Below, in pieces: positions 6,029 to 45,063 of a DNA stretch of 64,000 nucleotides. Source of the DNA: Candidatus Eiseniibacteriota bacterium (lineage in GTDB: Bacteria; Eisenbacteria; RBG-16-71-46; JAFGJU01); the NCBI GenBank assembly GCA_016928935.1, contig JAFGJU010000007.1, forward strand, positions 7,172 through 71,171, given 5' to 3'. The translations under genes were made by a program, and so were the position numbers. Position 1 is the first letter of the stretch. Every line of letters starts with the position of its first letter. The notes below the pieces were generated by a model. It was not told the DNA's origin, did no database searches, and saw nothing but the letters and a program-made list of their open reading frames with translations.

Positions 6029-6034
6029 GTACGC

Positions 6035-7223: not shown

Positions 7224-7301
7224 CTGGGTCCGCTCGATGCGGCGGCGCGTGGCCCCGCGGAAGACCGGACGTTTGCGCAAGGATCAGGAGAAGCTGCCGC
7301 C

Positions 7302-8969: not shown

Positions 8970-9065
8970 CGGGCCCTGGCGCGACCGCACCGTCCGCCTT
9001 GCGTAAGGGCATCTTTCTGCACTGTTCCGGCGAGTCGCCGGGAGCTTTCCTGAAGGGGGCGAATC

Positions 9066-10082
9066 ATGAAACGTGGAGTCTCTTTTCTCCTGTCGGTCTT
9101 GGTCCTCGTGGCGTTGATCCTCCCGGGTTGCGGCCAGAAACGGGACTCGTTGCAGATCGCCGGATGGGAGCTGTATCAGGACACCTATTACGGGATCAGC
9201 TTCAAGTACCCCCAGGGCTGGCCGGTGACGCAGGAGGGCGGCAGATTCTCCGTCTATTCGTCCCAGGACGTCATCAATCGCTTCTACGACTTCACGGCTG
9301 AAGGCCCGGACGGTGTCCGAATCCTTGTCTCCACCCAGAAAATGGACACGCTGGAGACCCTCGAGGAGTACGTCGCCCAGCTATCCACCAACCTGCAGGG
9401 CTTCGGATTCGACATCACGACGACCGAACCTTCGACCTTGGTCGGCCTGCCCGGAGCCTTGGTCCACTACAAGGGCGCGGTGGATGCCAGGAACGTGATA
9501 GAGGCCGTTCAGCTGACCGCCATGCGCGATTCGAGCCTGTTCGCCGTTAAGATGGAGGCCTTCAACGAGCTCTTCGCCCCCGGCCGGGCCGTGTTCGACA
9601 CGGTAGTGGCCACACTCCACTTGCCGAAGCCCAGAAGCGAGATGACGCAGGAAGAGCTGGCGTCCCCCGCCACTGACTTCGTGAAGTTCGAGAACGACCG
9701 GCTCAGCGTCCAGCACCCGAGCAATTTCGAAGTGTCTATGCCCAAGCCCAAGGCGCCGTCCGAATTCGCCATGGACATCAAGGGTTACAGGCAGGACAGC
9801 TACGTTCACATAGACGTGATCCCTGCACAGGGCTTGGCGGCCGAGAAAGTCGTCGAGCAGAACGCCAAGTTCTTCAGGGAGACCTCACGCGGCACGGCGA
9901 CAGTGAGCGGCACCAGCACCACCTACATCAACTACTCGGCGACGAAGGACGTCCAGAGCCGCGTCTATTTCTTGGTAAAGAACGACAAGTTCTACCGGGT
10001 CATCTTCAACTACTACGCTCCCATGAGGGACGTGTACCTGTCGGCGTTTGAGAAGACGGTCGGCAGTCTCGCGGTGAAATAG
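9066..10082 (+). CDS. lipoprotein with two internally repeated PsbP/DUF1795-like domains (hypothetical)
   Basis: Lipobox LILPGC and SD AAGGGGG. There is an internal duplication (ISFKYPQGW.. / SVQHPSNFEV..; ..FNELFAPGRAVFDTVVATL / ..FNYYAPMRDVYLSAFEKTVGSL). Confidence 0.5.
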   Translation: MKRGVSFLLSVLVLVALILPGCGQKRDSLQIAGWELYQDTYYGISFKYPQGWPVTQEGGRFSVYSSQDVINRFYDFTAEGPDGVRILVSTQKMDTLETLEEYVAQLSTNLQGFGFDITTTEPSTLVGLPGALVHYKGAVDARNVIEAVQLTAMRDSSLFAVKMEAFNELFAPGRAVFDTVVATLHLPKPRSEMTQEELASPATDFVKFENDRLSVQHPSNFEVSMPKPKAPSEFAMDIKGYRQDSYVHIDVIPAQGLAAEKVVEQNAKFFRETSRGTATVSGTSTTYINYSATKDVQSRVYFLVKNDKFYRVIFNYYAPMRDVYLSAFEKTVGSLAVK

Positions 10083-10162
10083 GCCGCTTCCCGGCTGCCC
10101 CGGAGTGCTCCGGCAGCCGTCACGAGCGGCCGCCGGCTCTCAGCCGACGTCAACGCAACTCA

Positions 10163-10190
10163 GAAGGCCAGCTCCTCCCGGCTGGCCTTC
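10163..10190 (+). terminator. rho-independent-like hairpin downstream of the lipoprotein gene
   Basis: Perfect 10-bp stem gaaggccagc / gctggccttc with an 8-nt loop, followed by a pyrimidine-rich tract. Confidence 0.35.
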
Positions 10191-10256
10191 TCCCTTCTCG
10201 TCCCCCAGCCCGCTGCCCCGTCCCGGCCTCGACCCGCGAGGCCGGCTCTTCCCCGC

Positions 10257-10285
10257 TTGACGGCGCCGTGTCAAGCTGGTATTTT
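10257..10285 (+). promoter_or_regulatory. sigma70-like promoter candidate for hppA (TTGACG-17-TATTTT)
   Basis: TTGACG at 10257-10262, a 17-nt spacer, TATTTT at 10280-10285. SD AAGGAGG lies 4 nt upstream of the ATG at 10348. Confidence 0.3.
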
Positions 10286-10347
10286 TAGGCGTTTGTTCGT
10301 TCAGCCAATGGGCGGACTGAAACCCTGTTGAGTCTCAAGGAGGTACA

Positions 10348-12489
10348 ATGGCCGGCATCCCTTCCATCTTCTGGATAGTCCCAGTTGCAGGCATCGCGAC
10401 AGTCCTCTTCGCGGTCCTCCTCATCAGGCACGTGCTGCGCCGTGACCCCGGCACGCCCAAGATGAGAGAGATCGGTGACGTCATCTTCGAGGGGGCCTGG
10501 GCGTTCTTGAAGCGCCAGTACAGCACCATAGGCCTTCTGTCGCTTCTCGTGGCCGTCATAATAGGCATCCTCGTGGCCCTACTCGGCGGAGAAAAGGGCA
10601 TAGAGGGAATGACCGCGGTCGGAATCGGCTGGCGGACAGCGGTGGCCTTCTTGCTCGGCGCCTTCTGCTCCAGCATCTCCGGGTTCATCGGCATGTATGT
10701 GGCCGTGAAGTCGAACGTCCGGTGCGCGGCCGCGGCCCAGAAGAACCTGTCCCAGGCCGTTACTGTGGCCCTGAGGGGCGGCGCCGTGTCCGGCTTCCTG
10801 ATCACTGCACTGAGCCTGTTGGGGGTTACGGCCATCTTCTTCGCCTTTGGCGGCGCCACGCGGCCGCACATAGCCCCGCATCTCATAGTGGGATTCGGGT
10901 TCGGAGCGAGCTTCGTGGCCCTTTTCGCGCAGCTGGGGGGCGGGATATACACCAAGGCGGCGGACATGGGGGCGGACCTGGTTGGAAAGGTGGAGGCGGG
11001 CATTCCCGAGGACGACCCCCGGAACGCCGCGGTCATCGCCGATCTGGTGGGGGACAACGTCGGCGACTGCGCCGGCCGTGGAGCGGACCTGTTTGAGTCA
11101 ACGGCGGCCGAGAACATAGGAGCAATGATACTGGGCATCATAGCCTACCTGGCCACTCACAACGTGGCCTGGGTGCTGTTTCCTCTCGTCGTCCGTGGTT
11201 TCGGCTTGGTGGCCAGCATGGTGGGCCTTATGTGTGTGCGCGCCAGGGAAAACGAGAATGCCATGGATGCCCTGAACCGCGGGTACTTCGTGGCCGTCGG
11301 CCTCTCCATAATAGGCCTGGCAGTCACGATCCACGTCATGCTGCACAACTGGTGGCTGTTCGGAGCCGGCCTGGTCGGCATACTGGCGAGCGTCGTCACC
11401 ATCTTCGTGACCCAGTACTACACGGAATCCAGGTACAAGCCCGTGAAGGACATCGCCCAGGCCTCAAAGACGGGGCCGGCGACCAACATAGTCGTAGGGA
11501 TCGCAGTGGGCTTCGAAACCACTCTCGCAACGGCAATAGTCATAGGTGGCTCTCTGATGCTCTCGTACTGGATGGGACAGATGAGCGGCGTCCTGGGAGC
11601 GGGCGCCTTCGGCACTGCCGTGGCCACGATGGGCATGCTCATGACCTGCCCTTACATCCTGTCCATGGACACGTTCGGCCCAATCACGGATAACGCAAAC
11701 GGCATAAACCAAATGGCCGGGGTAGGCAAGGAAGTGCGCCACATCACGGACAGGCTGGACGCCGTCGGCAACACCACCAAGGCGTTGACCAAGGGTTATG
11801 CCATGGTGTCCGCCGGCCTCGCCGCCTTCCTGCTCTTCCAGGCCTACCTCGACAGAGTCTCCTTCCTCAGGTTCGGTGAGGAGGGCAAGTACAACGTGGT
11901 TGACATAGCCAAGGTGGAGGTCTTCGTAGGCGCCCTCCTGGCAGTCATGATCGTGTACCTATTCAGCTCCTGGGCCATAAGGGCGGTCGGCAAGACGGCC
12001 GGCGCCATAATCCAGGAGGTGCGACGGCAATTCCAGTCGGACCCGGGCATCATGGCCGGGACCTCCAAGCCGGATTACTCCAGGGCCGTGGACATAACGG
12101 CCCGAGCCGGCCTGCGTGAGATGGTCGCACCCGGGCTTCTGCCGGTACTGGCTCCCGTGGTCATAGGCCTGCTCTTCAAGTGGGCCGGCTACGACGCGGC
12201 CATGGTCGTGGCCGCCGTGCTGATGGTGGGGACCATCGCGGGCATCATGCTGGCCTCGTTCATGAACAACGGCGGCGGCGCCTGGGACAACGCCAAGAAA
12301 ATGATAGAGGACGGCCAGCTCAAGGACGAGAAGGGGAACGTCATTACCAAGGGCAGTTTCACCCACGCAGCTGCGGTCGTCGGAGACACGGTCGGCGACC
12401 CGTTCAAGGACACCGCGGGACCGTCTCTCCACGTGCTCGTGAAACTCTTGAGCACGATCACTCTGGTGATGTGCCCGCTGTTCATCTGA
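10348..12489 (+). CDS. hppA: membrane-bound proton-translocating pyrophosphatase (H+-PPase), K+-independent type
   Basis: Sixteen-TM V-PPase with its hallmark motifs (GGIYTKAADMGADLVGKVE, DLVGDNVGDCAGRGADLFES). The GNTTKA motif carries Lys, which marks K+-independent H+-PPases. Confidence 0.95.
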   Translation: MAGIPSIFWIVPVAGIATVLFAVLLIRHVLRRDPGTPKMREIGDVIFEGAWAFLKRQYSTIGLLSLLVAVIIGILVALLGGEKGIEGMTAVGIGWRTAVAFLLGAFCSSISGFIGMYVAVKSNVRCAAAAQKNLSQAVTVALRGGAVSGFLITALSLLGVTAIFFAFGGATRPHIAPHLIVGFGFGASFVALFAQLGGGIYTKAADMGADLVGKVEAGIPEDDPRNAAVIADLVGDNVGDCAGRGADLFESTAAENIGAMILGIIAYLATHNVAWVLFPLVVRGFGLVASMVGLMCVRARENENAMDALNRGYFVAVGLSIIGLAVTIHVMLHNWWLFGAGLVGILASVVTIFVTQYYTESRYKPVKDIAQASKTGPATNIVVGIAVGFETTLATAIVIGGSLMLSYWMGQMSGVLGAGAFGTAVATMGMLMTCPYILSMDTFGPITDNANGINQMAGVGKEVRHITDRLDAVGNTTKALTKGYAMVSAGLAAFLLFQAYLDRVSFLRFGEEGKYNVVDIAKVEVFVGALLAVMIVYLFSSWAIRAVGKTAGAIIQEVRRQFQSDPGIMAGTSKPDYSRAVDITARAGLREMVAPGLLPVLAPVVIGLLFKWAGYDAAMVVAAVLMVGTIAGIMLASFMNNGGGAWDNAKKMIEDGQLKDEKGNVITKGSFTHAAAVVGDTVGDPFKDTAGPSLHVLVKLLSTITLVMCPLFI

Positions 12490-12652
12490 AGCCTCGCGCG
12501 AGCCGGCGCGACAGCGCTTTCGGCCGGCTGGAGGCCTCGTGCATCCATACGGAGCCTCCCGCCGGCCTTGCCGTCCGGTGACCGTTCGACTGCCCATTCC
12601 GGGTTCCACAGGCTCGCACAGCGCCGGACGGGTCCGCCTGAGGAGGTGCTCA

Positions 12653-13054
12653 TTGGAGTACGTCGAGATCGACGCAAGAGACAGACAGCTCATTGCCGCC
12701 GCCGCGGAGGTCATCCGCAGAAATTTTCGCGAGGACAGACACACGGTGGGCGCCGCGGTGCGTTGTCCTTCCGGCAGGACGTACGTGGGGGTCAACGTGG
12801 ATTCCTGCGGATACGGACCCTGCGCGGAGCCCATCGCAATCGGCGCGGCGTTCAGTGCGGGAGAGAGCGGAATCGAGGCCATAGTCGCGGTGGAGGGCAA
12901 GAGCGGCAGCTACGGCGTCCTTTCTCCGTGCGGCAATTGCAGGCAGCTCCTCCTCGACTACGCGCCGGACGCGATGGTCATAGTGCTGCTCGACGGAAAC
13001 GCAGTCAAGGTCAGAGCCAGGGACCTCCTGCCCGCCCCCTACCGGAGCTACTGA
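12653..13054 (+). CDS. cytidine deaminase family protein with blasticidin-S-deaminase-like features
   Basis: Zinc ligands CAEP and SPCGNCRQ are present. GVNVDSCGYGPCAE..VLSPCGNCRQLLLDY..ARDLLPAPY resembles the BSD family. The start is placed at TTG 12653 with AGGAGG 6 nt upstream, whereas the track ORF begins at 12539. Confidence 0.7.
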   Translation: MEYVEIDARDRQLIAAAAEVIRRNFREDRHTVGAAVRCPSGRTYVGVNVDSCGYGPCAEPIAIGAAFSAGESGIEAIVAVEGKSGSYGVLSPCGNCRQLLLDYAPDAMVIVLLDGNAVKVRARDLLPAPYRSY

Positions 13055-13117
13055 GCCGCCGTCGACACGCCGCCCTGCCCTACCGTTCAGGCCGGCGTTC
13101 CGAGCACTCCGGCCGCG

Positions 13118-14599
13118 TCATTCAAGCCTCTCCAGCATCTTCGCGACTTTCCGACCCACCCTCACCGCCGCCGGCGGGTCGTAGTTCGAGAGGACCACGG
13201 TCGTGTAGCCCACCCCGGGCTGCGCTTCGAGGTACGCGCTGATTCCGGGAGCGCCGCCCGCGACTGCGATTCCGCCCTCGGACACCTCACGCGACGCCTC
13301 CGGTGCCGAGAGCTTCCCGGCCTTCAGCGCAAGCACGAGCCTCAAGAGGTCGTCCGCGTTCGAATAGCCTCCGCCGGCCGAGCTCCCCCGCGCGGGCCGA
13401 GTGTAGATGTTGTTGCGCCGTGGCTCACCACGGCGCTCCTCCTGGCCCCACGCATGAGTGTAGCCGCTGGCCACGTCGGGAACGGGCACGTCGGCTTCCA
13501 GATGCCCCGTGCTTTCCATGCCGGCCGGCGCGCATATGTGTTCGCGCACGTAGTCGAAGTAGGTCTGCCCGCTCGCTTTCTCCACTATCAGGCCGAGCAC
13601 CACGTAACCGCCGTTGGAATATGCGCTGCTCGTGCCCGGCTCGAACGCCAGGGAGTCGGACGCAAACAGCGGGAGGTAGTCAACGAGGTCCCTTATCCTG
13701 TCCTTGGGAGTGTCGGCGTATCTCTGACCGAAGAAATCCCCTATGCCAGACGTCATCTCCAACAGGTGTCGCACGGTCACTTTCGCTGCTGCTTCCGCGT
13801 TCGAATAGTCAGGCAGGAACTTCCCTATCGTGTCATCCAGAGTCAGGGCGCCCCTCGCCGCGAGCTGTTCCACCGCGATGCGCGTGAACAGCTTGTTTAT
13901 GGAGCCCAGGTTGAAACGAGTCTCTGCACGGTTCGGGACTCCGTATTCCTTGCTGGCCGTTCCGAACGCTCTTCTGAACACCGTGACGTCGGGCCTGGCC
14001 AAAAGGACTACTCCGGAGAACTCGTCACGCCTCGCGAGTGAGTCAAGGTATGCGGACAGCTCCGCAACCAGCTGTGTCTCGTTGAGCGGAGGCCCTTCCC
14101 CTTCCGGTGAAGGCGGACCCTCCAGCAACTCGAAACGCGCTCCCAGGAAACGATGAGGAGGCTCAGCCTCGAAGGCGAAAGATATCTCCAGCCACTTCCC
14201 GGTCCCGCCGCGCGCCACCACCGTGAGCGCGTCCTCCCGCACCCGAGTGATCCGCTCCAACTCGAGCACCCCCGTGTCCTCCCTGATCTGCCGCAGTGCC
14301 TGGAGCCGGCCCTCCACGGGCCTCTGGCGTGCTCCCTCCGGCGACAGGTTGGCCTCCAGGTAGACACGCATCTCGGCCTCCTGTCCGGCGTTGAAAGCCT
14401 CCAAGAAGCCGGCCACGCGCTTTCCCGCCTGTGTGTCCGGCAGTCGCGCCGTGCCCACTGAGTCGCGGCCCGCGGCCTCGGACCCGCTCTGTGTCCGGCT
14501 GTTCGGGGCCGCGCCCGCGTGCCTAGCCCAGCTTCCTGACGGGGTCAGCGCCAGCAGGCCGCAGACGAGCAACGTTGCCATGAGGGGTTCAGTCTTCAT
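13118..14599 (-). CDS. class C beta-lactamase / PBP-like serine hydrolase with an N-terminal domain of unknown function
   Basis: Signal peptide, SxxK motif (SINK) and YxN motif (YSNGGY). SD AAGGAGAAG. About 180 aa at the N-terminus precede the hydrolase domain. Confidence 0.75.
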   Translation of the reverse strand: MKTEPLMATLLVCGLLALTPSGSWARHAGAAPNSRTQSGSEAAGRDSVGTARLPDTQAGKRVAGFLEAFNAGQEAEMRVYLEANLSPEGARQRPVEGRLQALRQIREDTGVLELERITRVREDALTVVARGGTGKWLEISFAFEAEPPHRFLGARFELLEGPPSPEGEGPPLNETQLVAELSAYLDSLARRDEFSGVVLLARPDVTVFRRAFGTASKEYGVPNRAETRFNLGSINKLFTRIAVEQLAARGALTLDDTIGKFLPDYSNAEAAAKVTVRHLLEMTSGIGDFFGQRYADTPKDRIRDLVDYLPLFASDSLAFEPGTSSAYSNGGYVVLGLIVEKASGQTYFDYVREHICAPAGMESTGHLEADVPVPDVASGYTHAWGQEERRGEPRRNNIYTRPARGSSAGGGYSNADDLLRLVLALKAGKLSAPEASREVSEGGIAVAGGAPGISAYLEAQPGVGYTTVVLSNYDPPAAVRVGRKVAKMLERLE

Positions 14600-14770: not shown

Positions 14771-14907
14771 ACCTTGCTAAGTTACTCATGTCCGCTCCGA
14801 CTCCTGCAACCTCACTCATGGGGAAGGCGGGGACCTACAAAACATGAGCCGAGATGTCTCTGGGCGAGAGTTCTGAGTGCAGCGACCTCTGCGACGAAGG
14901 AGGAAAG

Positions 14908-16014
14908 ATGGCTGGGAAGAAGACGACCGTCAGTGTCATTAAGGCCGACGTCGGCGGGTACGTAGGACACTCCGGCATGCACCCCGACGTGGTGGCAAAA
15001 GCGAACGAGATGCTGGAGGTGGCCGTTGAAAAGGGACTCGTGACCGACTTCCACGTGACCTGGTGCGGCGACGACCTTGAACTCATAATGACTCACGTCA
15101 GGGGCCTCGAAGCGGCCGACATACACAAGCTCGCATGGGACATCTTTCTGGCCGGCACAGAAGTCGCCAAGAAGCTCGGGCTGTACGGCGCGGGCCAGGA
15201 CATCCTCAAGGACGCCTTCAGTGGCACGGTCAAGGGACTCGGCCCGGGTGTGGCCGAGATGGAGTTTACCGAGAGAAGGAGCGACCCCATCATAGTGTTC
15301 ATGGCCGATAAGACCTCTCCTGGGGCCTGGAACCTTCCTCTCTACAAGATGTTCGCTGACCCGTTCAACACGGCGGGTCTGGTCATTGACCCCAGCATGC
15401 ACGAGGGCTTCAATTTCCTCGTGCTCGACGTAATCGACTCCAAGGAGATCATCCTCTCTGCGCCGGACGAGCTGTACGACATACTCGCCTTGATAGGCTC
15501 GCCCGCCAGGTACATGATAAAGTCCATTTACAGGCGCGCTGACGGGGAGATAGGAGCCAGCGCGTCAACCCAGAGACTCAGTCTCATAGCCGGCAAGTAC
15601 GTCGGCAAGGACGATCCCGTCCTCGTGGTCCGCGCTCAGAGCGGCCTGCCGGCCGTGGGCGAGATACTCGAGCCCTTCGCGTTCCCACACATCGTGGAGG
15701 GGTGGATGAGAGGCTCACACAACGGCCCTCTGATGCCGGTCGCCTTCCAGGACGCAACGCCGACCAGGTTCGACGGACCGCCAAGGGTCATAGCTGCCGG
15801 CTTCCAGGTGACGAACGGCCAGCTCATCGGGCCCGTGGACATGTTCGACGACCCCGGCTTTGACCTGGCGAGGAGCAAGGCCAACGAAATCGCTGACTAC
15901 ATGAGGCGGCACGGCCCGTTTGAGCCGCACAGGCTCCCGGCTGAGGCGATGGAGTACACCACCCTTCCGAGCCTCCTCGCGAAGCTGAAGGACAGGTTCA
16001 AGAACACCAAGTAG
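14908..16014 (+). CDS. fbp: bifunctional fructose-1,6-bisphosphate aldolase/phosphatase (class V FBPase, archaeal type)
   Basis: N-terminus MAGKKTTVSVIKADVGGYVGHSGMHPD and the length (~369 aa) match FBP aldolase/phosphatase. There is a strong SD, and the track start at 14854 is upstream and in frame. Confidence 0.85.
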   Translation: MAGKKTTVSVIKADVGGYVGHSGMHPDVVAKANEMLEVAVEKGLVTDFHVTWCGDDLELIMTHVRGLEAADIHKLAWDIFLAGTEVAKKLGLYGAGQDILKDAFSGTVKGLGPGVAEMEFTERRSDPIIVFMADKTSPGAWNLPLYKMFADPFNTAGLVIDPSMHEGFNFLVLDVIDSKEIILSAPDELYDILALIGSPARYMIKSIYRRADGEIGASASTQRLSLIAGKYVGKDDPVLVVRAQSGLPAVGEILEPFAFPHIVEGWMRGSHNGPLMPVAFQDATPTRFDGPPRVIAAGFQVTNGQLIGPVDMFDDPGFDLARSKANEIADYMRRHGPFEPHRLPAEAMEYTTLPSLLAKLKDRFKNTK

Positions 16015-28641: not shown

Positions 28642-28920
28642 CTATTGCTCCGACACGATGGATTTCAACGCGGATGCCGGCTTGAAGACCGGGACCAGTC
28701 TTGCCGGAACGATCAAGTCCGAACCTGTCCTGGGATTCTTGCCCATGGCCAGCGCCTTCTCGGCAACAGAGAAGGTGCCGAACCCCCGTAGCTTGACTTC
28801 AGTGCCTTCACTCAGAGCTCTGGAAATGGAACCGAAAATCTGCTCCACCACCTCGGCCGTCTGAGCCCGCGGCATCTTGGTCCTTCTCGACACATCCGCT
28901 ATTATGTCATGCTTGGTCAT
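28642..28920 (-). CDS. hup: HU/IHF family DNA-binding protein
   Basis: GFGTFSVAEKALAMGKNPRTGSDLIVPARLVPVFKPASALK. SD GGAGGAG. Confidence 0.9.
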   Translation of the reverse strand: MTKHDIIADVSRRTKMPRAQTAEVVEQIFGSISRALSEGTEVKLRGFGTFSVAEKALAMGKNPRTGSDLIVPARLVPVFKPASALKSIVSEQ

Positions 28921-28947: not shown

Positions 28948-29172
28948 CTAATCGCATATGGAGCAGCTTCCGTCGCCGCACGTGCTGCATGACGACTTCG
29001 ACCCGGAAGTACCCGTCGTTCTTCCGGACGAACGCACGCCAAACACCGAAAACAGCCGCTCCGTTTTGCTGGCCCCGCACTCGGGACACCGGACACCGCG
29101 GTCCTTGCCCACCGGGCAGAGTTTCTCAAACTCCTTGCCGCACACGCTGCATTTGAATTCGTATATCGGCAT
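28948..29172 (-). CDS. FmdB-family zinc-ribbon putative regulatory protein
   Basis: MPIYEFKCSVCGKEFE...CPECG (two CxxC pairs) with a Ser/Gly-rich tail. ATG at 29172 with GGGGTG SD; the track ORF starts 11 codons upstream. Confidence 0.7.
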   Translation of the reverse strand: MPIYEFKCSVCGKEFEKLCPVGKDRGVRCPECGASKTERLFSVFGVRSSGRTTGTSGSKSSCSTCGDGSCSICD

Positions 29173-29214
29173 ATTCATCACCCCTGTTAAACGTATCACG
29201 CCCACACGACCCTG

Positions 29215-29484
29215 TCAACCGTCGGGTGTCACTTCGTCCGGTATGCCCACTATGGTGGCGTCGCTCGGGTTGAACCTTTCGGGAAGCGCGTTCGCCGCCT
29301 CCCTGCCCTTGACGAAGAACACAACCTGGCCCGGCGCCGCGCTCACCGTGTCCACGGCGACGATGGCCGGGCCCGTGACCTGGCCGCTCTCGTCCAGCGG
29401 CTCCACCACCAGCAACCGCTGCCCTTTCAAGGACGCCACTTTGGCGGTCGCCACCACTGTCCCTATGACTCTGCCCAGGTGCAA
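29215..29484 (-). CDS. BMC vertex protein (EutN/PduN/CcmL family, BMC-P)
   Basis: MHLGRVIGTVVATAKV...LLVVEPLDESG...AVDTVSAAPGQVVFFVKGREAA matches the PduN pattern. TTG start with AGGAGAG SD. Confidence 0.85.
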   Translation of the reverse strand: MHLGRVIGTVVATAKVASLKGQRLLVVEPLDESGQVTGPAIVAVDTVSAAPGQVVFFVKGREAANALPERFNPSDATIVGIPDEVTPDG

Positions 29485-29499
29485 ACCCCACTCTCCTGG

Positions 29500-30120
29500 C
29501 TACAGGACCTTCTGAAACAAAGATTCGTCGGGCCGAGGTATGACCACGCTTCTGACCAACAGGCCCTTCTTGCTGGCGTAGGCGCTTCCCGCACTGACCG
29601 AGGCCTCCACCTCGCTCACTGCACCCGTCATGGTTACGAACGCCTTTCCACCCAGACCCTTCGCCAGCCGTATCTCGATTATCTTCACCCGTGCGGCCTT
29701 CCCGGCCAGGTCGGCAGACATGATCGTGGAAGCGACCGAGAACGTTTCGATCACTCCCAGCGAGTCCAGCCGCTGCACCTCCGACGTCCCTGTCAGCGCC
29801 GGAAAGATGCCCGGGTGCGGGTTCGGCAGGAAGAGCGTATCGACCACGCTCTCAGCTCCTATCGCCTCGCCCCTCGCAACGCTCGCGTCCACGCTGGCCA
29901 CGTCACCCTTGACTATGACCACGTACTTGCCTGCGCACACGGGCGTGGCCTCGACCAGCTCGACCGGAGCCACCTTCAACATCTCGTCTGCCGCCTGAAC
30001 GCCTATGGCGACGCTGTTGAGCTCCACCAAGCCGAGGGCCGCGGACGCCGACACCCGACCCGCCAGCTCCGGTCCGCTTTCCGGACCCGCCTTGCCACGT
30101 CTGTCTCCGTCTCCGGTCAT
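29500..30120 (-). CDS. tandem BMC-domain shell protein (BMC-T, PduT-like)
   Basis: Two consecutive BMC domains (ALGLVELNSVAIGVQAADEMLK... and SLGVIETFSVASTIMSADLAGKAARV...). Domain 1 carries a Cys (PVCAGKY) at the position used for a pore Fe-S cluster in PduT. ATG at 30120; the track GTG is at 30132. Confidence 0.8.
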   Translation of the reverse strand: MTGDGDRRGKAGPESGPELAGRVSASAALGLVELNSVAIGVQAADEMLKVAPVELVEATPVCAGKYVVIVKGDVASVDASVARGEAIGAESVVDTLFLPNPHPGIFPALTGTSEVQRLDSLGVIETFSVASTIMSADLAGKAARVKIIEIRLAKGLGGKAFVTMTGAVSEVEASVSAGSAYASKKGLLVRSVVIPRPDESLFQKVL

Positions 30121-30217
30121 GTCACTTCTCACTCTCGTTCGCTCTTCCGCCTACAAGGCAGACTCAGTTCTCACGCTTCGGGCGCCAGTCCGGTCGGGCC
30201 AGACAGTGCCGCGCGAA

Positions 30218-31540
30218 TCAGCTCGTGACGTGCAGGTACTCCTCGGTTATCGACGTCACCTGTCCGTCTATGCTGGCGTGCGCGACCGCCCCGGGGCCCG
30301 GCCCCTCGGGCTCAGCCACCACGGTGCCGCGGGTCACGCTCGCGCCCTTGGACACACACGGCCTGAGCCTGCCCCACTTTTCCCGCAGCGGGATCTTGAC
30401 CACCGTCGCTTCCAGGGCGCTTCTCGGCACAGGGTGAGGTCCCGCGTACCCGGCCAGGCCGAACCTGGCCGTCAGCCGCTCCACCGGGACGCGCCTGCCG
30501 CTCCGCTCGGGCAGCGGCGCCGTGGCCGCACGCTTGACCGTCAGCCGCACGCCTTTCGCCACCAGCTCCTGCTTGACGGCCTGAAAGATCAGCACCGGAG
30601 AGAGCTCCATCGGGCACACGAAGTGCCCGCACAACCCGCACTCCGAACAGAGCATTGCGCTCGCCAACTCTTCTTCCGACCCCTCAATCCAGAGCGCCAC
30701 AGACCGCATGATCTTGTGCGGAAACAGCTGATGTCCCATGAGGTACCTCGGACACATGAGGGTGCAGTCCATGCACTGCATGCACGCCGCCATGGCTCGC
30801 CTGACGCTCACGGACAGTCTCACTCTCCGCCTTCTGACAAGCGGATTGTCCGGCGGAAGGACTATGACGGCGGTCGTGGTCTTCCTGACCGGCGTATCCG
30901 CGTCCTCGGTAATCTCTCCCATCATGGGGCCGCCCATGACTATCACGAACGGCCGCACCGATGCCCCACCGCATGCCTCTATCAACGCGTTTGCGCTGGT
31001 TCCTATCGGCACCAGCAGCGTGCGCGGCTTCCGCACCTCTCCTACGACCGTCACGTATCTCTCGGTGAAGGCTCTGCCCTCGTTCGAGAGTGCCACCCGC
31101 CACAGTGTCGTGACGTTGCTCACCAGAACCGAGACCTCCGGCGGAATGCCTCCCTGCGGCACGACTCGTCCCGTGACTTCCTCCACCAGCAGGTGCTCGT
31201 CACCAGCCGGATAGACGTCGTCGAGCAGGTGCAGCGTGAAATCCCCCCTCTTCCTGGAGAGCTCTTCAAGCACCGCCACCTGCTCCTTCCTCTTCCGTTT
31301 TAACGCCACGATCGCCCTGGTGGCGCCCACGGCGCCGCGCATCAGAGCCAGTCCCTCCAGCATCCGTTCCGGGTCCGCGGAGATGACCGCGCTGTCCGAT
31401 GCCACAAGCGGTTCGCACTCGGCGTAATTCGCCACCACCGTGTCCACGCAGGCCGCGGCCTTCACGTGAGTCGGAAAACCGGCTCCGCCGGCCCCCGCCA
31501 CCCCCGCCTGTTCTATCTTCCGTACGATGTCGTTGGCCAA
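30218..31540 (-). CDS. PduS-like RnfC-family Fe-S flavoprotein (NADH-dependent oxidoreductase)
   Basis: N-terminal GAGGAGFPTHVK NADH/FMN motif near the start, as in PduS. Two 4Fe-4S ferredoxin motifs (CMQCMDCTLMCP, CSECGLCGHFVCP). A C-terminal extension of about 100 aa. Confidence 0.8.
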   Translation of the reverse strand: MANDIVRKIEQAGVAGAGGAGFPTHVKAAACVDTVVANYAECEPLVASDSAVISADPERMLEGLALMRGAVGATRAIVALKRKRKEQVAVLEELSRKRGDFTLHLLDDVYPAGDEHLLVEEVTGRVVPQGGIPPEVSVLVSNVTTLWRVALSNEGRAFTERYVTVVGEVRKPRTLLVPIGTSANALIEACGGASVRPFVIVMGGPMMGEITEDADTPVRKTTTAVIVLPPDNPLVRRRRVRLSVSVRRAMAACMQCMDCTLMCPRYLMGHQLFPHKIMRSVALWIEGSEEELASAMLCSECGLCGHFVCPMELSPVLIFQAVKQELVAKGVRLTVKRAATAPLPERSGRRVPVERLTARFGLAGYAGPHPVPRSALEATVVKIPLREKWGRLRPCVSKGASVTRGTVVAEPEGPGPGAVAHASIDGQVTSITEEYLHVTS

Positions 31541-31615
31541 ACCGTCCCCGTCACGCCCTGCCCGCGCTGCGTCGCCCGCCCGGCCGCGCCCATGCGACGA
31601 CTCCCCATACGCGGG

Positions 31616-33130
31616 TCATACTATCCTGAAATAGTCCACAAGAACGCAGCGCCGCATCCTGGCGAAATGCCTGGCCGAGGTCAAACCCTCTCCGGTCGGG
31701 CTGGCTATCGTGAAGCTGGTGTAGCCCTCGCCGCCCAGGCCCAGTCCGGCGTAGGACGGCCCGTTCTTCACGAATATCGAGACGTCCATCTCCCTGGCCA
31801 TCCGGCTCAAGTGCTCGATGTTCTTGGAGTGCATGACCGCCGTGTGTCCCAGGTCCCGCTCGACCCTCTTCGCCAGGGTGATTGCCTCTGCCGCGTCCTT
31901 CACCCTGACCAGCGGTATTATCGGCATGAGCATTTCGGTCCAGACGAACGGATGGTCCCATTGAACTTCTATGAACCCAAGCCGGGACCCGTTGCTCACC
32001 CGCACGCCCGCCTCCGCCAAAATCAAGGGCAGGTCTCTGCCGACGAATTCTCTCCTCGCCGCTGACGGCCGCGCCGGTCCACGATTCTCCGCCAGGACGA
32101 GGCCGGCCAGCTTCGAGGCCAGCCCGCTGTCCAGCTCAACCCCGCCGGCCTTCACCAGAGCCGCCTTCAGCTCGGCCGCGACCGAATCCACGACTATGAT
32201 CTCCTTCTCCGAGATGCACACGATGCCGTTGTCCAACGACGCGCCGCCGAAGATGTCCCTACCCGCTTTGTCTATGTCGGCAGTGTCGTCAACCACTACG
32301 GGAGGGTTTCCCGGCCCTCCGGCTATGACCTTTTTTCCGCAGTCCATCGCCGCCCGCACCACGGCGGGCCCCCCCGTCACCACCAAAAGGTCCACCCCGC
32401 CGTGCTTCATCAACTCCTGAGAGAGCTGTATGGAAGGCTCCTCGAACGTCACGAGCAGGTTATTGATGCCCGACGCGGAGGCGATTGCGTCGTTCAGGAG
32501 CTGCACCGCCGCCAGCGTAGTCTGTTTGGCGGAAGGATGGGGACAGAACACCACCGCGTTTCCGGCGGCCACCATGCCTATTGCGTTGTTGATGACTGTC
32601 TCGGACGGATTGGTGGAAGGCGTTATGGCCGCTATGACCCCGTACGGAGCCCATTCCGTAAGTGTGAGTCCCCTGTCCCCCGTCCAGGACACCGGCACAA
32701 GGTCCTCCACTCCGGGCGTCTTCTCCGCCACGAGCAGGTTCTTCTTGACCTTGTCGTCCACCCTCCCCAGGCCGGTCTCCTTGACCGCCATACTGGAGAG
32801 CAAGAGTGCGTTTCTGGCCGAGGTCTCCCGCATGGCGGCGATCATCTTTTTCCTCGTCTCGAGGGCGGTGGCCGCCAGCGCTTCCCGGGCTCTGTTGGCC
32901 GCGCGCGCCGCTGACTCGGCGTCTCTGAACACCGAGTCCGAACTCGACCGCACCCCGGCCGCGGCGGGCGGTCTGAAATTCCCCTTGATGAGTGCGTCGT
33001 CCCTCCCGGCAGTCCGCCGAGCCACATCCCGGACCGCCGGCTCCGCGGCCGACGCCTCGGCCTTCAGTCTCCTCAGCACCGAATCCACCAGTGCCGAGAT
33101 TCTGTCTTCGTCCGACACCATGACGTCCAT
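31616..33130 (-). CDS. CoA-acylating aldehyde dehydrogenase (PduP/EutE-like) with an N-terminal encapsulation-peptide-like extension
   Basis: ALDH fold with a catalytic Cys region (IVCISEKE) and GGPGNPPVVVD. An extension of about 65 aa begins with the amphipathic DRISALVDSVLRRLKAE helix, followed by a linker. Confidence 0.9.
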   Translation of the reverse strand: MDVMVSDEDRISALVDSVLRRLKAEASAAEPAVRDVARRTAGRDDALIKGNFRPPAAAGVRSSSDSVFRDAESAARAANRAREALAATALETRKKMIAAMRETSARNALLLSSMAVKETGLGRVDDKVKKNLLVAEKTPGVEDLVPVSWTGDRGLTLTEWAPYGVIAAITPSTNPSETVINNAIGMVAAGNAVVFCPHPSAKQTTLAAVQLLNDAIASASGINNLLVTFEEPSIQLSQELMKHGGVDLLVVTGGPAVVRAAMDCGKKVIAGGPGNPPVVVDDTADIDKAGRDIFGGASLDNGIVCISEKEIIVVDSVAAELKAALVKAGGVELDSGLASKLAGLVLAENRGPARPSAARREFVGRDLPLILAEAGVRVSNGSRLGFIEVQWDHPFVWTEMLMPIIPLVRVKDAAEAITLAKRVERDLGHTAVMHSKNIEHLSRMAREMDVSIFVKNGPSYAGLGLGGEGYTSFTIASPTGEGLTSARHFARMRRCVLVDYFRIV

Positions 33131-33162
33131 CTCACGGTCAACTCAGACTCGCGCCGGGGCCG

Positions 33163-33462
33163 TCAGCCGGAAATGCCCTTCTGGTACGTCTCCTTACCGC
33201 CGATCTCCAGAGTGTCGACAATGCCCATTATCACGGAGTCGACGGGTTTGTCCCTGGTCACGTCCGTCAACCTCGCGGAGCTCCCGGACGAGTACAGCAC
33301 CACTTCCCCCACCCCGGCGCCGACCGCGTCCGCAGCCACCACGAACCCGGGCTTGAGCTTCATGTCGATATCCAGCTCTCTGACCACCAGAAGCTTGATT
33401 CCGCTGAGAGCTTCTTCCTTGCGCGTGGACACGACTGTGCCCACGACTCTGCCGAGAATCAC
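33163..33462 (-). CDS. BMC vertex protein (EutN/PduN/CcmL family, BMC-P)
   Basis: [17 protein letters not shown]...LLVVRELD...[25 protein letters not shown] start with GAGGAGGAG SD. Confidence 0.85.
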
Positions 33463-33474
33463 TTCTCCTCCTCA

Positions 33475-33768
33475 CTATCTCTTAGATTCGGAGGCTCTGC
33501 CTATGGGCAGCACGTCCTCAAGGCTGGAGTGAGGTCTCGGGATAATGTGCACCGACACCACCTCGCCGACCTTGCTCGCGGCGCTGCCGCCCGCGTCCGT
33601 CGCGGCCCTCACCGCGGCCACGTCACCTCTCACAATCGCGGTCACGTACCCGCCGCCGGTCCTCTCGTATCCTATGAGTCTGACCTTGGCCGCCTTGACC
33701 ATCGCGTCCGAAGCCTCGACCATCGCGACGAAGCCTCGCGTCTCGATCAAACCAAGAGCTTCTTCCAT
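33475..33768 (-). CDS. BMC hexamer shell protein (BMC-H, PduA/EutM-like)
   Basis: [29 protein letters not shown]...HIIPRPH is the canonical PF00936 pattern. The ATG at 33768 has better SD spacing than the track start at 33774. Confidence 0.9.
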
Positions 33769-33799
33769 CTCCATTCCTCCGTTCGGGACTGGCCGACGT

Positions 33800-34072
33800 C
33801 TACTTCAACAACGGCTCCTCAAGCTGAGAGTGAGGACTGGGTATCACGTGCGAAGACACCAGCTCCCCCGTCTTCTGCGCCGCCGCGGCTCCGGCCTGCA
33901 CAGCGGCCTTGACGGCGCCGACGTCCCCTCTCACCAGCGCGGTCACGTACCCGCCGCCGGTCCTCTCGTACTTCACTAAAGTCACTTTGGCGGCCTTGAC
34001 CATCGCGTCCGACGCCTCCACCATCCCCACGAACCCCTTGGTCTCAATCATCCCCAGAGCTTCTCCCTGCAA
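33800..34072 (-). CDS. BMC hexamer shell protein (BMC-H), paralog
   Basis: [30 protein letters not shown]...HVIPSPH. TTG at 34072 lies 9 nt after GGCAGGAG; the track GTG is at 34081. Its nucleotide sequence is near-identical to the adjacent paralog over long stretches. Confidence 0.9.
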
Positions 34073-34134
34073 TAGAATCACCTCCTGCCGAAGACGGCGT
34101 TAGTCTCTACCCCCAAAATTAGCATTGACCCACG

Positions 34135-34878
34135 TCACAGTATCTCGACCAACGTGCCGCAATGAACGTCCGCCGCGTTGGCGTCGTCCGTGTCCAGATG
34201 CATCTCCAACACGTAGGAAGAACTCACCCGCATAAGCACGTTCTCAAAGACGACTCCCTTCTGACCGTACACGCGCACCGACACCGTCTGTCCGTCCTCC
34301 ACACCCAGCCTCTCCGCGTCTTCGGGCGCGGCGTGCACGTGCCTCAACGCTCTTATGCCGCCCTCCTTCAGGCTGATCGCGCCCCTGGGCCCGACCAACA
34401 CGATCGGCGCGCTGCCCTCGAGTTTTCCCGAGTCTCTGACCGGAAGCTCCATGCCCAGCGCCACGCCGTCCGTCCTGGACAGCTCCGCCTGCGTGTACTC
34501 CCGGATGGGCCCGATGATACGCACGTCCTGAATTGAGTGCATCCGCGGCCCCACTACCGTGAGGGTCTCCTTCGCGGAGAACTCACCGGGCTGGCTCAGG
34601 TCTCGAAACCTCGTGAGCTCGCATCCCGCCCCGTACGTGGCGTCCAGCACTCCCCTCGTCAGGTGCACGTGCCTCGCGGATACCGCCACCGGCACCAGCC
34701 GCGACGCGACACCCTTCAGGCGCTCTCTCACTCTGGCCAGCACCGCTGCCGTGAGCTGGCTCAGGTCTGTTTCACCCAGGCTCGCGAGCCCCGCTTCCGC
34801 GTCGCCGGTCCATCCCACACCCTCGCAGTAACCGCATTCCTGGCAGGCCGTGCTTCTTCTTTCCACTCGGACCCCCAA
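34135..34878 (-). CDS. pduL: phosphate propanoyl/acetyltransferase PduL (PTAC) with an N-terminal extension
   Basis: Two PduL repeats with VSARHVHL and HVHAAPEDAERLG motifs and GQFAAEETV-like GEFSAKETLTVVGPRMHS. The start codon is uncertain (TTG at 34878, GTG at 34866). The extension contains CQECGYCEG and the amphipathic LTAAVLARVRERL helix. Confidence 0.85.
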   Translation of the reverse strand: MGVRVERRSTACQECGYCEGVGWTGDAEAGLASLGETDLSQLTAAVLARVRERLKGVASRLVPVAVSARHVHLTRGVLDATYGAGCELTRFRDLSQPGEFSAKETLTVVGPRMHSIQDVRIIGPIREYTQAELSRTDGVALGMELPVRDSGKLEGSAPIVLVGPRGAISLKEGGIRALRHVHAAPEDAERLGVEDGQTVSVRVYGQKGVVFENVLMRVSSSYVLEMHLDTDDANAADVHCGTLVEIL

Positions 34879-34916
34879 TGACCGTCGACCGCTGGCGCAA
34901 CTGATTAGGTGTGGGT

Positions 34917-34946
34917 AAATTAGCAGAGGGCCGCAATTACTGTCAA
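34917..34946 (-). promoter_or_regulatory. sigma70-like promoter candidate for the BMC operon (TTGACA-18-TAATTT on the minus strand)
   Basis: On the minus strand, TTGACA corresponds to plus 34941-34946 and TAATTT to plus 34917-34922. It lies about 40 nt upstream of the pduL start. Confidence 0.3.
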
Positions 34947-35582
34947 CTCTTAAAGAGACTCCTGGCTGCGAGCCCGGAGAGGCGCCGGGTGGCGCGGGTC
35001 GCGAGGTGAAGCGGGCTATCTCCTGCCGGTTGAGACGTGGAATCGGCCACGGCCAGAGGCCGCGGAGCCGCGTTCCGCGAGGGGTGCGAGGTCCCCGGTG
35101 GTTCCTCGTTCAAGAAGAATGGAAGCGCGGGGAGCCTCCCGGGCACAAGATCCCTCCCCTGCGACGACGGAGGAAATCGCAAGGCGAGTTTCTCGCTGAG
35201 GCAGAAGTCGGAAGGATTGTTGATGAGAAGAACAGGACCCTTGCCGCGTTTGTCTCCCCGGCCTCCTACTCGACTGTGTTGTTCGCACCACGCGGTGAAT
35301 ACAACTTCCGTGCCATCCGCTCGGGGCACGCTGCAAGCCGGCGTGGCTGTTCAGGCTCAACGAGTTGGCCGTGGGATAACACAGACTTCACAGGACTGCG
35401 CTCAATTCACAGCGTGAACCCCGTGCACGCCCGCCGGGGCCGTCCCGGATTTCCCCAAGTCAACACGCGACATGCGGCCGGGAACTGAGTTCACGCATAC
35501 GCAACCGGCGCGCCGCTCGGGGCTCCGGGGCCGAGCATATGGGCCCGGCCCCGAGCCAAACGGCCCCGGCCTGGAAGCAAGA

Positions 35583-43344: not shown

Positions 43345-45063
43345 TCAGTAGGCCGGGAACCTGGCGCAAAGCTCCCTGACGCCCGCCCGCACCTTCGCGT
43401 TCTCTGACGGGTCCGAGCCCTTGCGCACGCACGCGTCTATCAACCGAGCCACCTCGCCCATTTCCTCCACCTTCATTCCTCTTCCGGTTGCCGACAGGGT
43501 TCCAACGCGGATGCCGCCGGCCTGGAACTTCGTGTCGAACGGCACTGCGCAGGCGTTCACCAGGAGTCCCGCGTCCTCCAGCCAGTTCCAGGCAGCCGAC
43601 GCGTCCACCCCCAGCCTGCCTATGTCGGCCACGAAAAGGTGCGTGTCCGTGCCGCCCGCCAGTATGCGGTGTCCCAACTTCTCCAACGCGGCTGCCAGCG
43701 CCCGGGCGTTCTCAATCACCGCCAACTGGAACTGTCTGAACTCAGGCCTGAGGGCCAGGCCGAAGCAGGCCGCTTTGGCGGCGATCGCGTGCATCAGGGG
43801 CCCTCCCTGCACGACGGGGAACACGGCGTCGTCCACGGCCGGGGCGTGTTCCTTCCTGGCCAGTATGAGCCCGCCTCGCGGGCCCAGCAGTGTCTTGTGC
43901 GTGGTGCTCGTCATCACGTCCGCGAACGGAACCGGGCTGGGGTGGATTCCCGCCGCGACGATTCCGGACAGGTGTGCCATGTCCACCATCAAGCGTGCTC
44001 CGCACGCGTCGGCTATCGACCGGAATCGGGCGAAGTCCACAAACCTGGAATAGGCGCTGCCCCCGGCAATGATGAGGTTCGGCCGTTCCTTCGTTGCCAA
44101 TCTCTCAACTTCCTCATAATCAATCAGTTCCGTCTCTCTCTTCACACCGTACATCAGAGACCCGTACAGTCTCCCCGCGAACGTCTCCGGGTCGCCGTGT
44201 GTGGGATGCCCGCCGTGGTCAAAGCGCATGCCCAGAATTTTCTGGCCCGGCTTGAGTAGAGCGAAGTACGCGGCCATGTTGGCCTGTGTCCCGGAGTAGG
44301 GCTGGACGTTGGCGTGGTCGGCTCCGAAAAGGGTCTTCGCCCTGTCCCTGGCCAGCGTTTCCACCTCGTCCACGACCCGGCAGCCGGGGTACAGCCTGGC
44401 GCCTGGATAGCCCTCGGCGTACTTGAGCGTGAACAACGAACCCGTCGTCTCGAATATGGCCGTGTCCGCGATGCCCTCAGACGCAACCAGGGTCAGAGTC
44501 TCGTTCTGCCGCGCTCTCTCCCGGTCCATCAGCTCCTTAAGGCGCGGGTCAACCTCCCGGGTCCTCTGGCCGTGATGCAACCAAAACCCGGGAGTCTCGT
44601 AAGCGGAGATCTTGCCTATTCTCCTCTCGTGGCGCCCCCCTTCGAACTCAGTCTGCAGCCACACTCTCACGAATTCCTCCGCTTCGACGGGCTTCGTGAA
44701 GGCCGCGGCCAGGACCAGCACGTTGGCGTTGTTGTGGACCCTCGACAGCCTGGCAGATTCCCTGTCGCGGCACAGGGCGGCCCGTACACCTCTCACCTTG
44801 TTGGCGGCAATCGACATGCCGATTCCCGTGTGGCAGATGAGAATGGCCCTGTCCGCCCGACCCTCCGCCACGGCTCTGGCCGCGGCAAGGCCGAAGTCAG
44901 TGTAATCCACGGACTCCGACGAGAAAGTCCCCATGTCGTCTACCTCGTGGCCAAGCGAGGTCACGTACTGCGCCACGTGTTGCTTCAGAGCGAAACCGGC
45001 GTGGTCGGAGCCCACGGCAATCTTGATGCGCTCACCAGCGCCACCGCTAGTCTGTCCTTTCAC
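43345..45063 (-). CDS. glyA: fused ribose-5-phosphate isomerase B / serine hydroxymethyltransferase (RpiB::GlyA)
   Basis: The N-terminal ~150 aa are RpiB/LacAB (IKIAVGSDHAGFALK...ICHTGIGMSIAANK). The remainder is SHMT (LVASEGIADTAIFETTGSLFTLKYAEGYPGARLYPGC; TSTTHKTLLGPRGG). GTG start with AAGGGAGGA SD. Confidence 0.9.
   Translation of the reverse strand: MKGQTSGGAGERIKIAVGSDHAGFALKQHVAQYVTSLGHEVDDMGTFSSESVDYTDFGLAAARAVAEGRADRAILICHTGIGMSIAANKVRGVRAALCRDRESARLSRVHNNANVLVLAAAFTKPVEAEEFVRVWLQTEFEGGRHERRIGKISAYETPGFWLHHGQRTREVDPRLKELMDRERARQNETLTLVASEGIADTAIFETTGSLFTLKYAEGYPGARLYPGCRVVDEVETLARDRAKTLFGADHANVQPYSGTQANMAAYFALLKPGQKILGMRFDHGGHPTHGDPETFAGRLYGSLMYGVKRETELIDYEEVERLATKERPNLIIAGGSAYSRFVDFARFRSIADACGARLMVDMAHLSGIVAAGIHPSPVPFADVMTSTTHKTLLGPRGGLILARKEHAPAVDDAVFPVVQGGPLMHAIAAKAACFGLALRPEFRQFQLAVIENARALAAALEKLGHRILAGGTDTHLFVADIGRLGVDASAAWNWLEDAGLLVNACAVPFDTKFQAGGIRVGTLSATGRGMKVEEMGEVARLIDACVRKGSDPSENAKVRAGVRELCARFPAY

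Follow-up and report, generated by a model that had tools for sequence, protein, structure and literature searches.

The 64-kb window analyzed here is the whole stretch of 64,000 nucleotides taken from contig JAFGJU010000007.1 of a Candidatus Eiseniibacteriota bacterium, and it contains eight tightly packed minus-strand genes of a bacterial microcompartment (BMC), which span 29215-34878 and are separated by intergenic gaps of 12-85 nt in the open reading frame (ORF) listing and the Pfam/NCBIfam scans (Table 1). Read along the minus strand they encode a PduL-type phosphotransacylase (PTAC), two BMC-H proteins, a BMC-P protein, a CoA-acylating aldehyde dehydrogenase (AldDH), a PduS homolog, a BMC-T protein and a second BMC-P protein, and they are followed by genes for an FmdB-family zinc-ribbon protein and HU, an inventory that a preliminary description of this DNA had proposed and that Pfam and NCBIfam bear out. 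Pfam recovers every claimed domain, all on the minus strand, and the failure of hidden Markov model searches to find shell domains, which that description had named as a reason to abandon it, did not occur for any product. All three shell classes are present, with two BMC-H, one BMC-T and two BMC-P (Pfam E 1e-27 to 1e-43). The preliminary count of nine consecutive genes was one too high: the 128-codon ORF at 34943-35329 was rejected as a ninth gene, having a low-complexity translation and no Pfam match, and its apparent conservation lies in a block of nucleotide sequence that does not keep to one reading frame; the ORF overlies a conserved non-coding element. By its gene content the locus is a genuine, intact and, we would predict, functional BMC operon.

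Table 1. Features of the 64-kb window, with positions counted from its first nucleotide.
Feature	Position	Strand	Evidence or remark
Sigma-54-like -24/-12 motif TGGCACGGAAGTTGTAT	35299..35315	-	about 30 nt upstream of the RNA element
Candidate structured non-coding RNA, ~150 nt	35119..35268	-	alignments, RNAalifold, covariance model
Promoter-like TTGACA-N18-TAATTT	34917..34946	-	about 40 nt upstream of PduL, between the RNA element and PduL
PduL-type phosphotransacylase (PTAC)	34135..34878	-	PF06130 E 1e-66; NF011652 230 bits vs cutoff 209
BMC-H shell hexamer 1, KAAK / PSPH motifs	33800..34081	-	PF00936 E 8e-31
BMC-H shell hexamer 2, KAAK / PRPH, EutM-like	33475..33774	-	PF00936 E 4e-29; EutM equivalog 138 bits vs cutoff 133
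BMC-P shell pentamer 1	33163..33462	-	PF03319 E 9e-28
CoA-acylating AldDH, PduP/EutE type	31616..33130	-	PF00171; NF011927 623 bits vs cutoff 403
PduS homolog	30218..31540	-	PF01512 + PF10531 + PF13534 + PF13375
PduT-like BMC-T, tandem BMC domains	29500..30132	-	PF00936 x2; top NCBIfam match PduT
BMC-P shell pentamer 2	29215..29484	-	PF03319 E 5e-27
FmdB-family zinc-ribbon protein, Cys-rich tail CSTCGDGSCSIC	28948..29205	-	PF09723 / TIGR02605
HU gene	28642-28920	-	past the FmdB zinc-ribbon gene
Apparent RpiB-serine hydroxymethyltransferase (SHMT) fusion, one 572-aa ORF	43345-45063	-	RpiB residues 15-152, serine hydroxymethyltransferase residues 170-542
Class V bifunctional fructose-1,6-bisphosphate aldolase/phosphatase	14854-16014	+	PF01950 E 1e-183

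The AldDH, for which a comparison with the PDB gave the BMC aldehyde dehydrogenases 5JFL and 4C3S as the best matches, has an N-terminal amphipathic helix (DRISALVDSVLRRLKAE) that resembles an encapsulation peptide (EP), together with a linker, and the protein is one that carries a predicted EP. Comparison of N-termini across clades shows that PduL has an N-terminal extension in which an ERRSxxCxECGYC motif and a linker precede an amphipathic EP-like helix (DLSQLTAAVLARVRERL); an alternative GTG start at 34866 may be the true start of this protein. The recycling of CoA that is expected of a metabolosome is accounted for by PduL, which matches PF06130 and scores above the NF011652 cutoff.

The aldehyde-generating signature enzyme that is equally expected in a metabolosome locus is absent. 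When practically every ORF of 150 aa or more was scanned with Pfam, neither the locus nor the 64-kb window showed a glycyl-radical enzyme, class II aldolase, DeoC, EutBC/PduCDE or B12-dependent lyase or dehydratase; the scans found no iron-containing alcohol dehydrogenase or acetate kinase in the window, and a tblastn search of the window with an aldolase query was also negative, so the earlier statement that signature enzyme, alcohol dehydrogenase and acyl kinase are all lacking from locus and window holds. The RpiB-SHMT fusion was considered as a hidden signature enzyme and ruled out, since it lies in a sua5-LMW-PTP-rpiB-glyA housekeeping cluster 8.5 kb from the BMC locus. The class V fructose-1,6-bisphosphate aldolase/phosphatase, a gluconeogenic enzyme in a housekeeping context unrelated to the BMC, and a LarA-like protein were rejected in the same role, since both are surrounded by unrelated genes and have no EP.

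The exact AldDH sequence is present on a Logan metagenome contig from SRR13394437. Among species-representative genomes the closest AldDHs are that of L002, from an uncultured bacterium (83% identical), and then those of metagenome-assembled genomes (MAGs) of Candidatus Eisenbacteria/Eiseniibacteriota, in agreement with the preliminary suggestion of an under-sampled lineage related to the FCB group; the AldDHs of L003 (complete chromosome CP070702.1) and L014 (JAZDPI01) are about 70% identical to that of the window. We refer to the lineage of the window as clade A, which consists of 17 loci (the window, L002, L003, L014 and 13 metagenome loci), and to a sister Eisenbacteria clade, with AldDHs 59-63% identical to that of the window, as clade B. 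L002, L003 and L014, with which the window groups at 71-83% AldDH identity, are fully syntenic with the window, flanks included, in the order EIIA, HD, beta-helix, PDZ, PduL-H-H-P-AldDH-PduS-T-P, zinc-ribbon, HU, RNase R, PilZ and PorV-like, and the 13 further loci found in the metagenome scan have the same architecture. All complete clade-B loci have the order PTAC-H-H-P-AldDH-PduS-T-P-P-[PF00596 aldolase]-S49-HU and occupy the same chromosomal site as clade A, and it is apparent from these comparisons that throughout Candidatus Eisenbacteria the BMC family stays at one chromosomal site, which lies upstream of HU. When the window is compared with L002, dN/dS is 0.05-0.16 over all eight BMC genes, similar to the 0.12 of the neighboring RNase R gene, which indicates that the locus is maintained by selection. 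The FmdB-family zinc-ribbon gene is also under purifying selection (dN/dS 0.14); it adjoins the 3' end of the operon without exception in the complete clade-A loci, does so in clade A only, and takes the position that the third BMC-P (P3), aldolase and S49 peptidase genes have in clade B.

In clade B the gene for the second BMC-P is thus followed by those for a further BMC-P, a class II aldolase (PF00596), an S49 peptidase and HU, while neither the class II aldolase nor a P3 ortholog is found in any clade-A locus. The clade-B aldolases are 255-320 aa long, compared with about 215 aa for solved FucA-type enzymes, and the metal-ligand region (HAHPP, NHG) is visible in their sequences; after the catalytic core comes a tail with an invariant CxxCGxC and a low-complexity linker that varies between the enzymes, and an amphipathic helix forms the C-terminal part. 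This architecture fits the published description of the BMC aldolase EP, which has about 17 residues and is set off by a linker 23-81 residues long (PMC4594438). P0116, a class II aldolase of 283 aa that is 49% identical to the clade-B enzyme and carries CESCGYCE and a C-terminal helix, is encoded on contig JAZDPI010000347.1, and this contig belongs to the same MAG, JAZDPI01, as the clade-A main locus L014. About 20 proteins, 62-77% identical and with the same tail, came up in a search with P0116 and form a group of their own. In the five genomic contexts that were looked up, the distal aldolase gene follows genes for HAD, ACPS and nnr (YjeF) and precedes glnA and/or a methyltransferase gene and then GH32/43. 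GC content is compatible with clade A. PF00596 aldolases are likewise present in the loci of more distant AldDH relatives (Myxococcota HO-like loci and Clostridia). We infer from these arrangements that the signature aldolase of clade A has left the operon but kept its targeting tail, and that the window locus derives, by a split, from an ancestral operon whose last genes were those for BMC-P3 and the aldolase.

The cysteine motif of the aldolase tail has a counterpart in PduL. In clade A the PduL N-terminus (34720-34878, minus strand) has a CxECGYC motif before the EP helix, which clade B does not have, and this motif mirrors the CxxCGxC that stands ahead of the EP in BMC-type class II aldolases of several phyla. 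The aldolase motif is invariant in Eisenbacteria and recurs, sometimes in degenerate form, in Firmicutes, Bacteroidota and Latescibacteria. Such a motif may be a metal site that functions in cargo assembly.

The PduS homolog has a Complex1_51K FMN/NADH domain, an SLBB domain, a Fer4_17 domain for two [4Fe-4S] clusters and a C-terminal RnfC_N domain, and the same four domains make up MNdh, the NADH dehydrogenase of metabolosomes (Sutter et al. 2024, PMC11626177). MNdh and its partner BMC-T(SE) regenerate NAD+, the electrons being carried to the other side of the shell by Fe-S clusters, and the pair is found in 361 AldDH loci that have no alcohol dehydrogenase (PMC11626177). The window locus shares both features, as its PduS gene adjoins the BMC-T gene and alcohol dehydrogenase is absent. 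The BMC-T has a pore cysteine, which lies in CAGK in the window, in CSGK in L002, in C(A/S)GK throughout clade A and in CPGK in clade B, and which is missing from the BMC-T of related Myxococcota loci that have no PduS. The BMC-T is therefore predicted to be a BMC-T(SE)-like electron conduit, and the PduS/BMC-T pair, judged by domains and gene order, is most likely the known MNdh/BMC-T(SE) module for NAD+ recycling. Such recycling would make the missing alcohol dehydrogenase an expected feature, and an acyl kinase is absent from the locus in many catalogued BMC types too (PMC8217296). In the preliminary description the function of the locus was considered open, with the PduS-like protein as the only extra enzyme, and the aldehyde-handling core was called partial; the first point gives way to a probable NAD+-regeneration module of a described kind, and of the second it is correct that neither alcohol dehydrogenase nor kinase is present, although the lack of the former would be explained by MNdh/BMC-T(SE).

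The locus is probably the main operon of an aldolase-type, split-locus metabolosome of Candidatus Eisenbacteria, with the aldolase encoded outside the locus; that the signature enzyme is encoded elsewhere in the genome is, from the gene comparisons, most likely. In such a metabolosome a ketose-1-phosphate would enter the shell, with L-fuculose-1-P, L-rhamnulose-1-P and 5-deoxy- or D-ribulose-1-P as candidates, and would be cleaved by the class II aldolase, which in clade A would be supplied from outside the locus and reach the lumen by means of its C-terminal EP, to dihydroxyacetone phosphate (DHAP) and lactaldehyde, acetaldehyde or glycolaldehyde. The EP-tagged AldDH would convert the aldehyde to acyl-CoA with formation of NADH, and the EP-tagged PduL would recycle CoA and release an acyl-phosphate from which a cytosolic kinase could make ATP. 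MNdh would reoxidize the NADH and pass electrons via its two Fe-S clusters to a cluster at the BMC-T pore cysteine and on to the outside of the shell, and with this exit through BMC-T no alcohol dehydrogenase would be needed.

Several observations weigh against this reading. The link to the aldolase rests on one MAG, in which the aldolase contig is just 4.4 kb, so that a binning error is possible, and no shell genes are present near the distal aldolase in the five neighborhoods looked up. Look-ups of the clade-A aldolases P0124, P0123, P0128 and P0126 all led to other samples, and no aldolase of the window organism itself was recovered; CP070702.1 is not among the matches of the aldolase protein search, the chromosome itself not having been scanned. 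The aldolase reaches no NCBIfam equivalog cutoff, its best NCBIfam and PDB matches being generic FucA-family aldolases, and its NCBIfam scores are similar for FucA, ribulose-1-P aldolase and 3-oxo-tetronate-4-P decarboxylase and somewhat lower for the MtnB dehydratase, which fixes neither its substrate nor whether it acts as an aldolase or as an epimerase or dehydratase; with scores spread over these models, the aldehyde could be lactaldehyde, acetaldehyde, glycolaldehyde or another. In published models of sugar-phosphate-utilization (SPU) BMCs the class II aldolase is an accessory enzyme and not the signature (PMC11585597). The CP(G/S)K pore motif has been reported as universal for BMC-T beside MNdh (PMC11626177), and the CAGK of the window departs from it while keeping the cysteine and the GK. 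The window locus has two BMC-P genes compared with three in its relatives, and the third has not been located: a search with P3 and three look-ups gave only clade-B, MIC7-like and unrelated loci. Finally, encapsulation, substrate and electron acceptor are properties that we infer.

Signature-less AldDH metabolosomes are a catalogued class that includes ACI, FRAG1-7, HO, MIC2-7 and MUF2-3, and the catalogue files Eisenbacteria loci under MIC7, together with Latescibacteria (Sutter et al. 2021, PMC8217296, Supplementary Data 2). MIC7 is described as combining a single enzyme, AldDH, with a triplet of BMC-P genes and a BMC-T(dp) in a satellite, with an adjacent PduS in two of the six catalogued loci (PMC8217296). 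The window resembles it in phylum, in the N-terminal EP of the AldDH, in having two BMC-H and in its PduT-like BMC-T(s), but it adds PduL and MNdh and has two BMC-P only, so that neither the restriction to AldDH nor the BMC-P triplet is found; the comparison was made with the catalogue description, and what agrees with an assignment to MIC7 is the taxonomy (Eisenbacteria) and the chromosomal site. A minimal locus that fits MIC7 is L045 (Logan ERR1884145, 3821-9731), which has the order H-H-P-AldDH-T-P-P and no PTAC, PduS or aldolase. It lies at the chromosomal site of the window, is followed by HU, a 31-aa ORF and a gene with an RNB domain (RNase II/R-type), and has an AldDH 52% identical to that of the window.

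The Haliangium ochraceum type (HO, types I and II) is similar to the window in the N-terminal EP of its AldDH (50-55% identical) and in having no alcohol dehydrogenase, and its PF00596 aldolase is encoded either in the main locus (type II) or distally (type I), which is the same split as between clades B and A. It differs in having a BMC-T(dp), a BMC-P triplet and a BMC-T with no pore cysteine, usually no PduS and no PTAC, and in that its satellite combines BMC-P genes with the aldolase, whereas the distal aldolase of clade A stands alone among housekeeping genes. MIC4, MUF2 and MUF3 share with the split-locus metabolosome proposed here the combination of AldDH, PTAC and class II aldolase with a PduS/PduT pair, and have EPs at the N-terminus of AldDH, the N-terminus of PTAC and the aldolase's C-terminus; MUF2, from Gemmatimonadetes, has AldDH and PTAC with the aldolase usually in a satellite locus. 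These types have an acetate kinase (MIC4, MUF3) or extra shell paralogs, come from other phyla, and their AldDHs fall elsewhere in the catalogue tree. The Planctomycetes/Verrucomicrobia type (PVM) has the same working model, in which an EP-tagged class II aldolase forms lactaldehyde and DHAP and AldDH and PTAC follow (PMC4594438; PMC8217296), but it has been tied experimentally to fucose and rhamnose, whereas the sugar phosphates named above for the Eisenbacteria system are candidates, and in PVM the MNdh/BMC-T(SE) pair is for the most part encoded in satellite loci (PMC11626177). The description that best fits the window locus, from these likenesses in gene content, is that of a split-locus variant within the HO/MIC7/MIC4-like aldolase-associated metabolosomes.

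An unlikely alternative is that the locus is a new type with a different, unrecognized signature enzyme or substrate, and that the distal class II aldolase is an ordinary cytosolic enzyme. The search of the window's own genome spanned 64 kb, the distal aldolase sits among housekeeping genes with no shell genes, and clade A differs from clade B in several linked respects, namely the loss of P3, the gain of the zinc-ribbon protein, the PduL cysteine motif, the CAGK pore and a private upstream RNA, all of which are compatible with this alternative. It conflicts with the CxxCGxC, linker and C-terminal helix of the distal aldolase, which are BMC-specific and would be purposeless in a cytosolic FucA-like enzyme of about 215 aa, and with the finding that AldDH, PduL and the shell proteins have their orthologs in the sister operon, which contains the aldolase.

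Also unlikely is an SPU-like BMC, in which the signature enzyme would be a DeoC/DERA encoded elsewhere that forms acetaldehyde from DNA-derived deoxyribose-5-P, with the class II aldolase as an accessory enzyme. The locus L016, whose AldDH is 51% identical to that of the window, has the same PduL-H-P-AldDH-PduS-T core together with RpiB, TIM and a flavoprotein-DeoC fusion; the catalogue places the AldDHs of MIC7 and HO beside those of SPU3, SPU5 and SPU7 and records an EP-bearing DeoC at a distal position in some HO genomes (PMC8217296); and SPU1, SPU4 and SPU7 pair PTAC with PduS and have no BMC-T(dp), as does the window locus (PMC11585597). SPU loci are recognized by DeoC (PF01791) and RpiB (PF02502) in the locus and at least three BMC-P, and the window locus has no DeoC and two BMC-P. 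Indeed, DeoC is absent from the window, from all clade-A and clade-B Eisenbacteria loci examined and from the aldolase satellite loci, the only RpiB of the window is the SHMT fusion in its housekeeping cluster, and the enzyme that travels with the clade-B operon and has kept its EP on relocation is the class II aldolase and not DeoC.

The usual rationale of a metabolosome is to confine an aldehyde that is produced inside the shell, which counts against the rather improbable view of the locus as a signature-less scavenger, into which cytosolic aldehydes would diffuse to be oxidized and which would have no dedicated aldehyde-generating cargo. The minimal MIC7-like relatives, which consist of shell genes and AldDH only (L045 and loci of the catalogue), are what such a scavenger might look like, yet the EP-tailed aldolase in the same MAG and in the sister operon would be left unexplained. 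That the locus is a decaying remnant left by deletion of the aldolase and third pentamer genes is most improbable, because although two genes of the sister clade are missing at the window locus, all eight genes are intact in at least six divergent complete or near-complete loci and their dN/dS values resemble those of neighboring housekeeping genes.

The locus is thus a lineage-specific variant of known metabolosome principles, as far as gene content can tell, and not a new organelle type. The preliminary description of the operon is accurate, but its claim to novelty is overstated: the possibly undescribed BMC type that it proposed belongs to a signature-less class already in the catalogue, and the sister operon holds an EP-tailed aldolase. 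It had also named, as a ground for refutation, a match to a known type with the signature enzyme encoded next to these genes, and this applies in spirit only, as the aldolase is encoded elsewhere in JAZDPI01. The 2021 catalogue files the Eisenbacteria BMCs as "incomplete core, function unknown"; the comparison of genomes indicates that their aldehyde would come from a class II aldolase with an EP and that MNdh/BMC-T(SE) would recycle the NAD+, which makes the function of an apparently orphan compartment testable. The two clades would show how a signature enzyme can exit an operon and yet retain its targeting tail, and they are a caution for locus-based classification of BMCs, in that an enzyme absent from the locus need not be absent from the organelle.

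The non-coding element upstream of PduL is a candidate structured RNA that may be more novel than the operon itself. Each of the 17 clade-A loci has it, nearly invariant, directly upstream of the operon and its PduL gene, and a sigma-54-like TGGCAY-N5-TTGYW precedes it in all 16 loci whose sequence extends that far (that of L060 stops short), a motif that is almost absent elsewhere in the 64 loci. RNAalifold predicts 41 pairs that form a 12-bp closing helix, two invariant hairpins and a long-range helix, though the homologs were gathered by an exact 26-mer and the central hairpin is invariant by construction. The long-range helix has two covarying pairs, with UA/CG and CG/UA switches in 4-6 sequences; 97% of the alignment cells are paired, and the observed double changes were reached by 1 of 500 shuffles. 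The G-U pairs favor the minus strand, and the structure exposes CCUUCC/CCUCC, which is anti-Shine-Dalgarno-like, while the single-sequence folding z-score is unremarkable (-0.99). A covariance model finds the element at 169 bits as a single copy in the window and has no match in clade B, HO-like or aldolase-satellite loci or elsewhere in the about 0.43 Mb searched, and an Rfam search of the window and the upstream region gave no match. Closer to PduL, the window, L002, L003 and L014 share GTTGACA and CTCTG.TAA.TT without variation, although a generic sigma-70 and terminator scan found nothing above shuffled background and the TTGACA-N18-TAATTT motif fails it.

We propose only tentatively that this element is a new regulatory RNA dedicated to the organelle and driven by the sigma-54-like promoter. 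It could be a small RNA with exposed anti-Shine-Dalgarno motifs, or alternatively a leader or riboswitch that senses a substrate of the compartment. If the proposal is correct, the RNA and the CxxCGYC of PduL, which mirrors that of the relocated aldolase, would mark a re-wired control and assembly of the split-locus metabolosome.

Two further loci came to light among the relatives. L016 (7434-17650) is an SPU-like locus in which TIM has a 90-aa N-terminal extension and which also encodes RpiB, two BMC-P and the flavoprotein-DeoC fusion, a kind of fusion (flavoprotein-DERA) that a 2025 preprint on microcompartments of archaea describes as uncommon (PMC12747264). L046 (JGI 3300057053, 5810-14300) has a lone P3-type BMC-P inside a nucleoside-salvage cluster that comprises a deoxynucleoside kinase, a uridine kinase, a thymidine kinase, a nucleoside transporter of the Bmp/ABC kind and PNP, and RpiB is encoded close by, an arrangement that suggests a satellite of the SPU/FRAG type.

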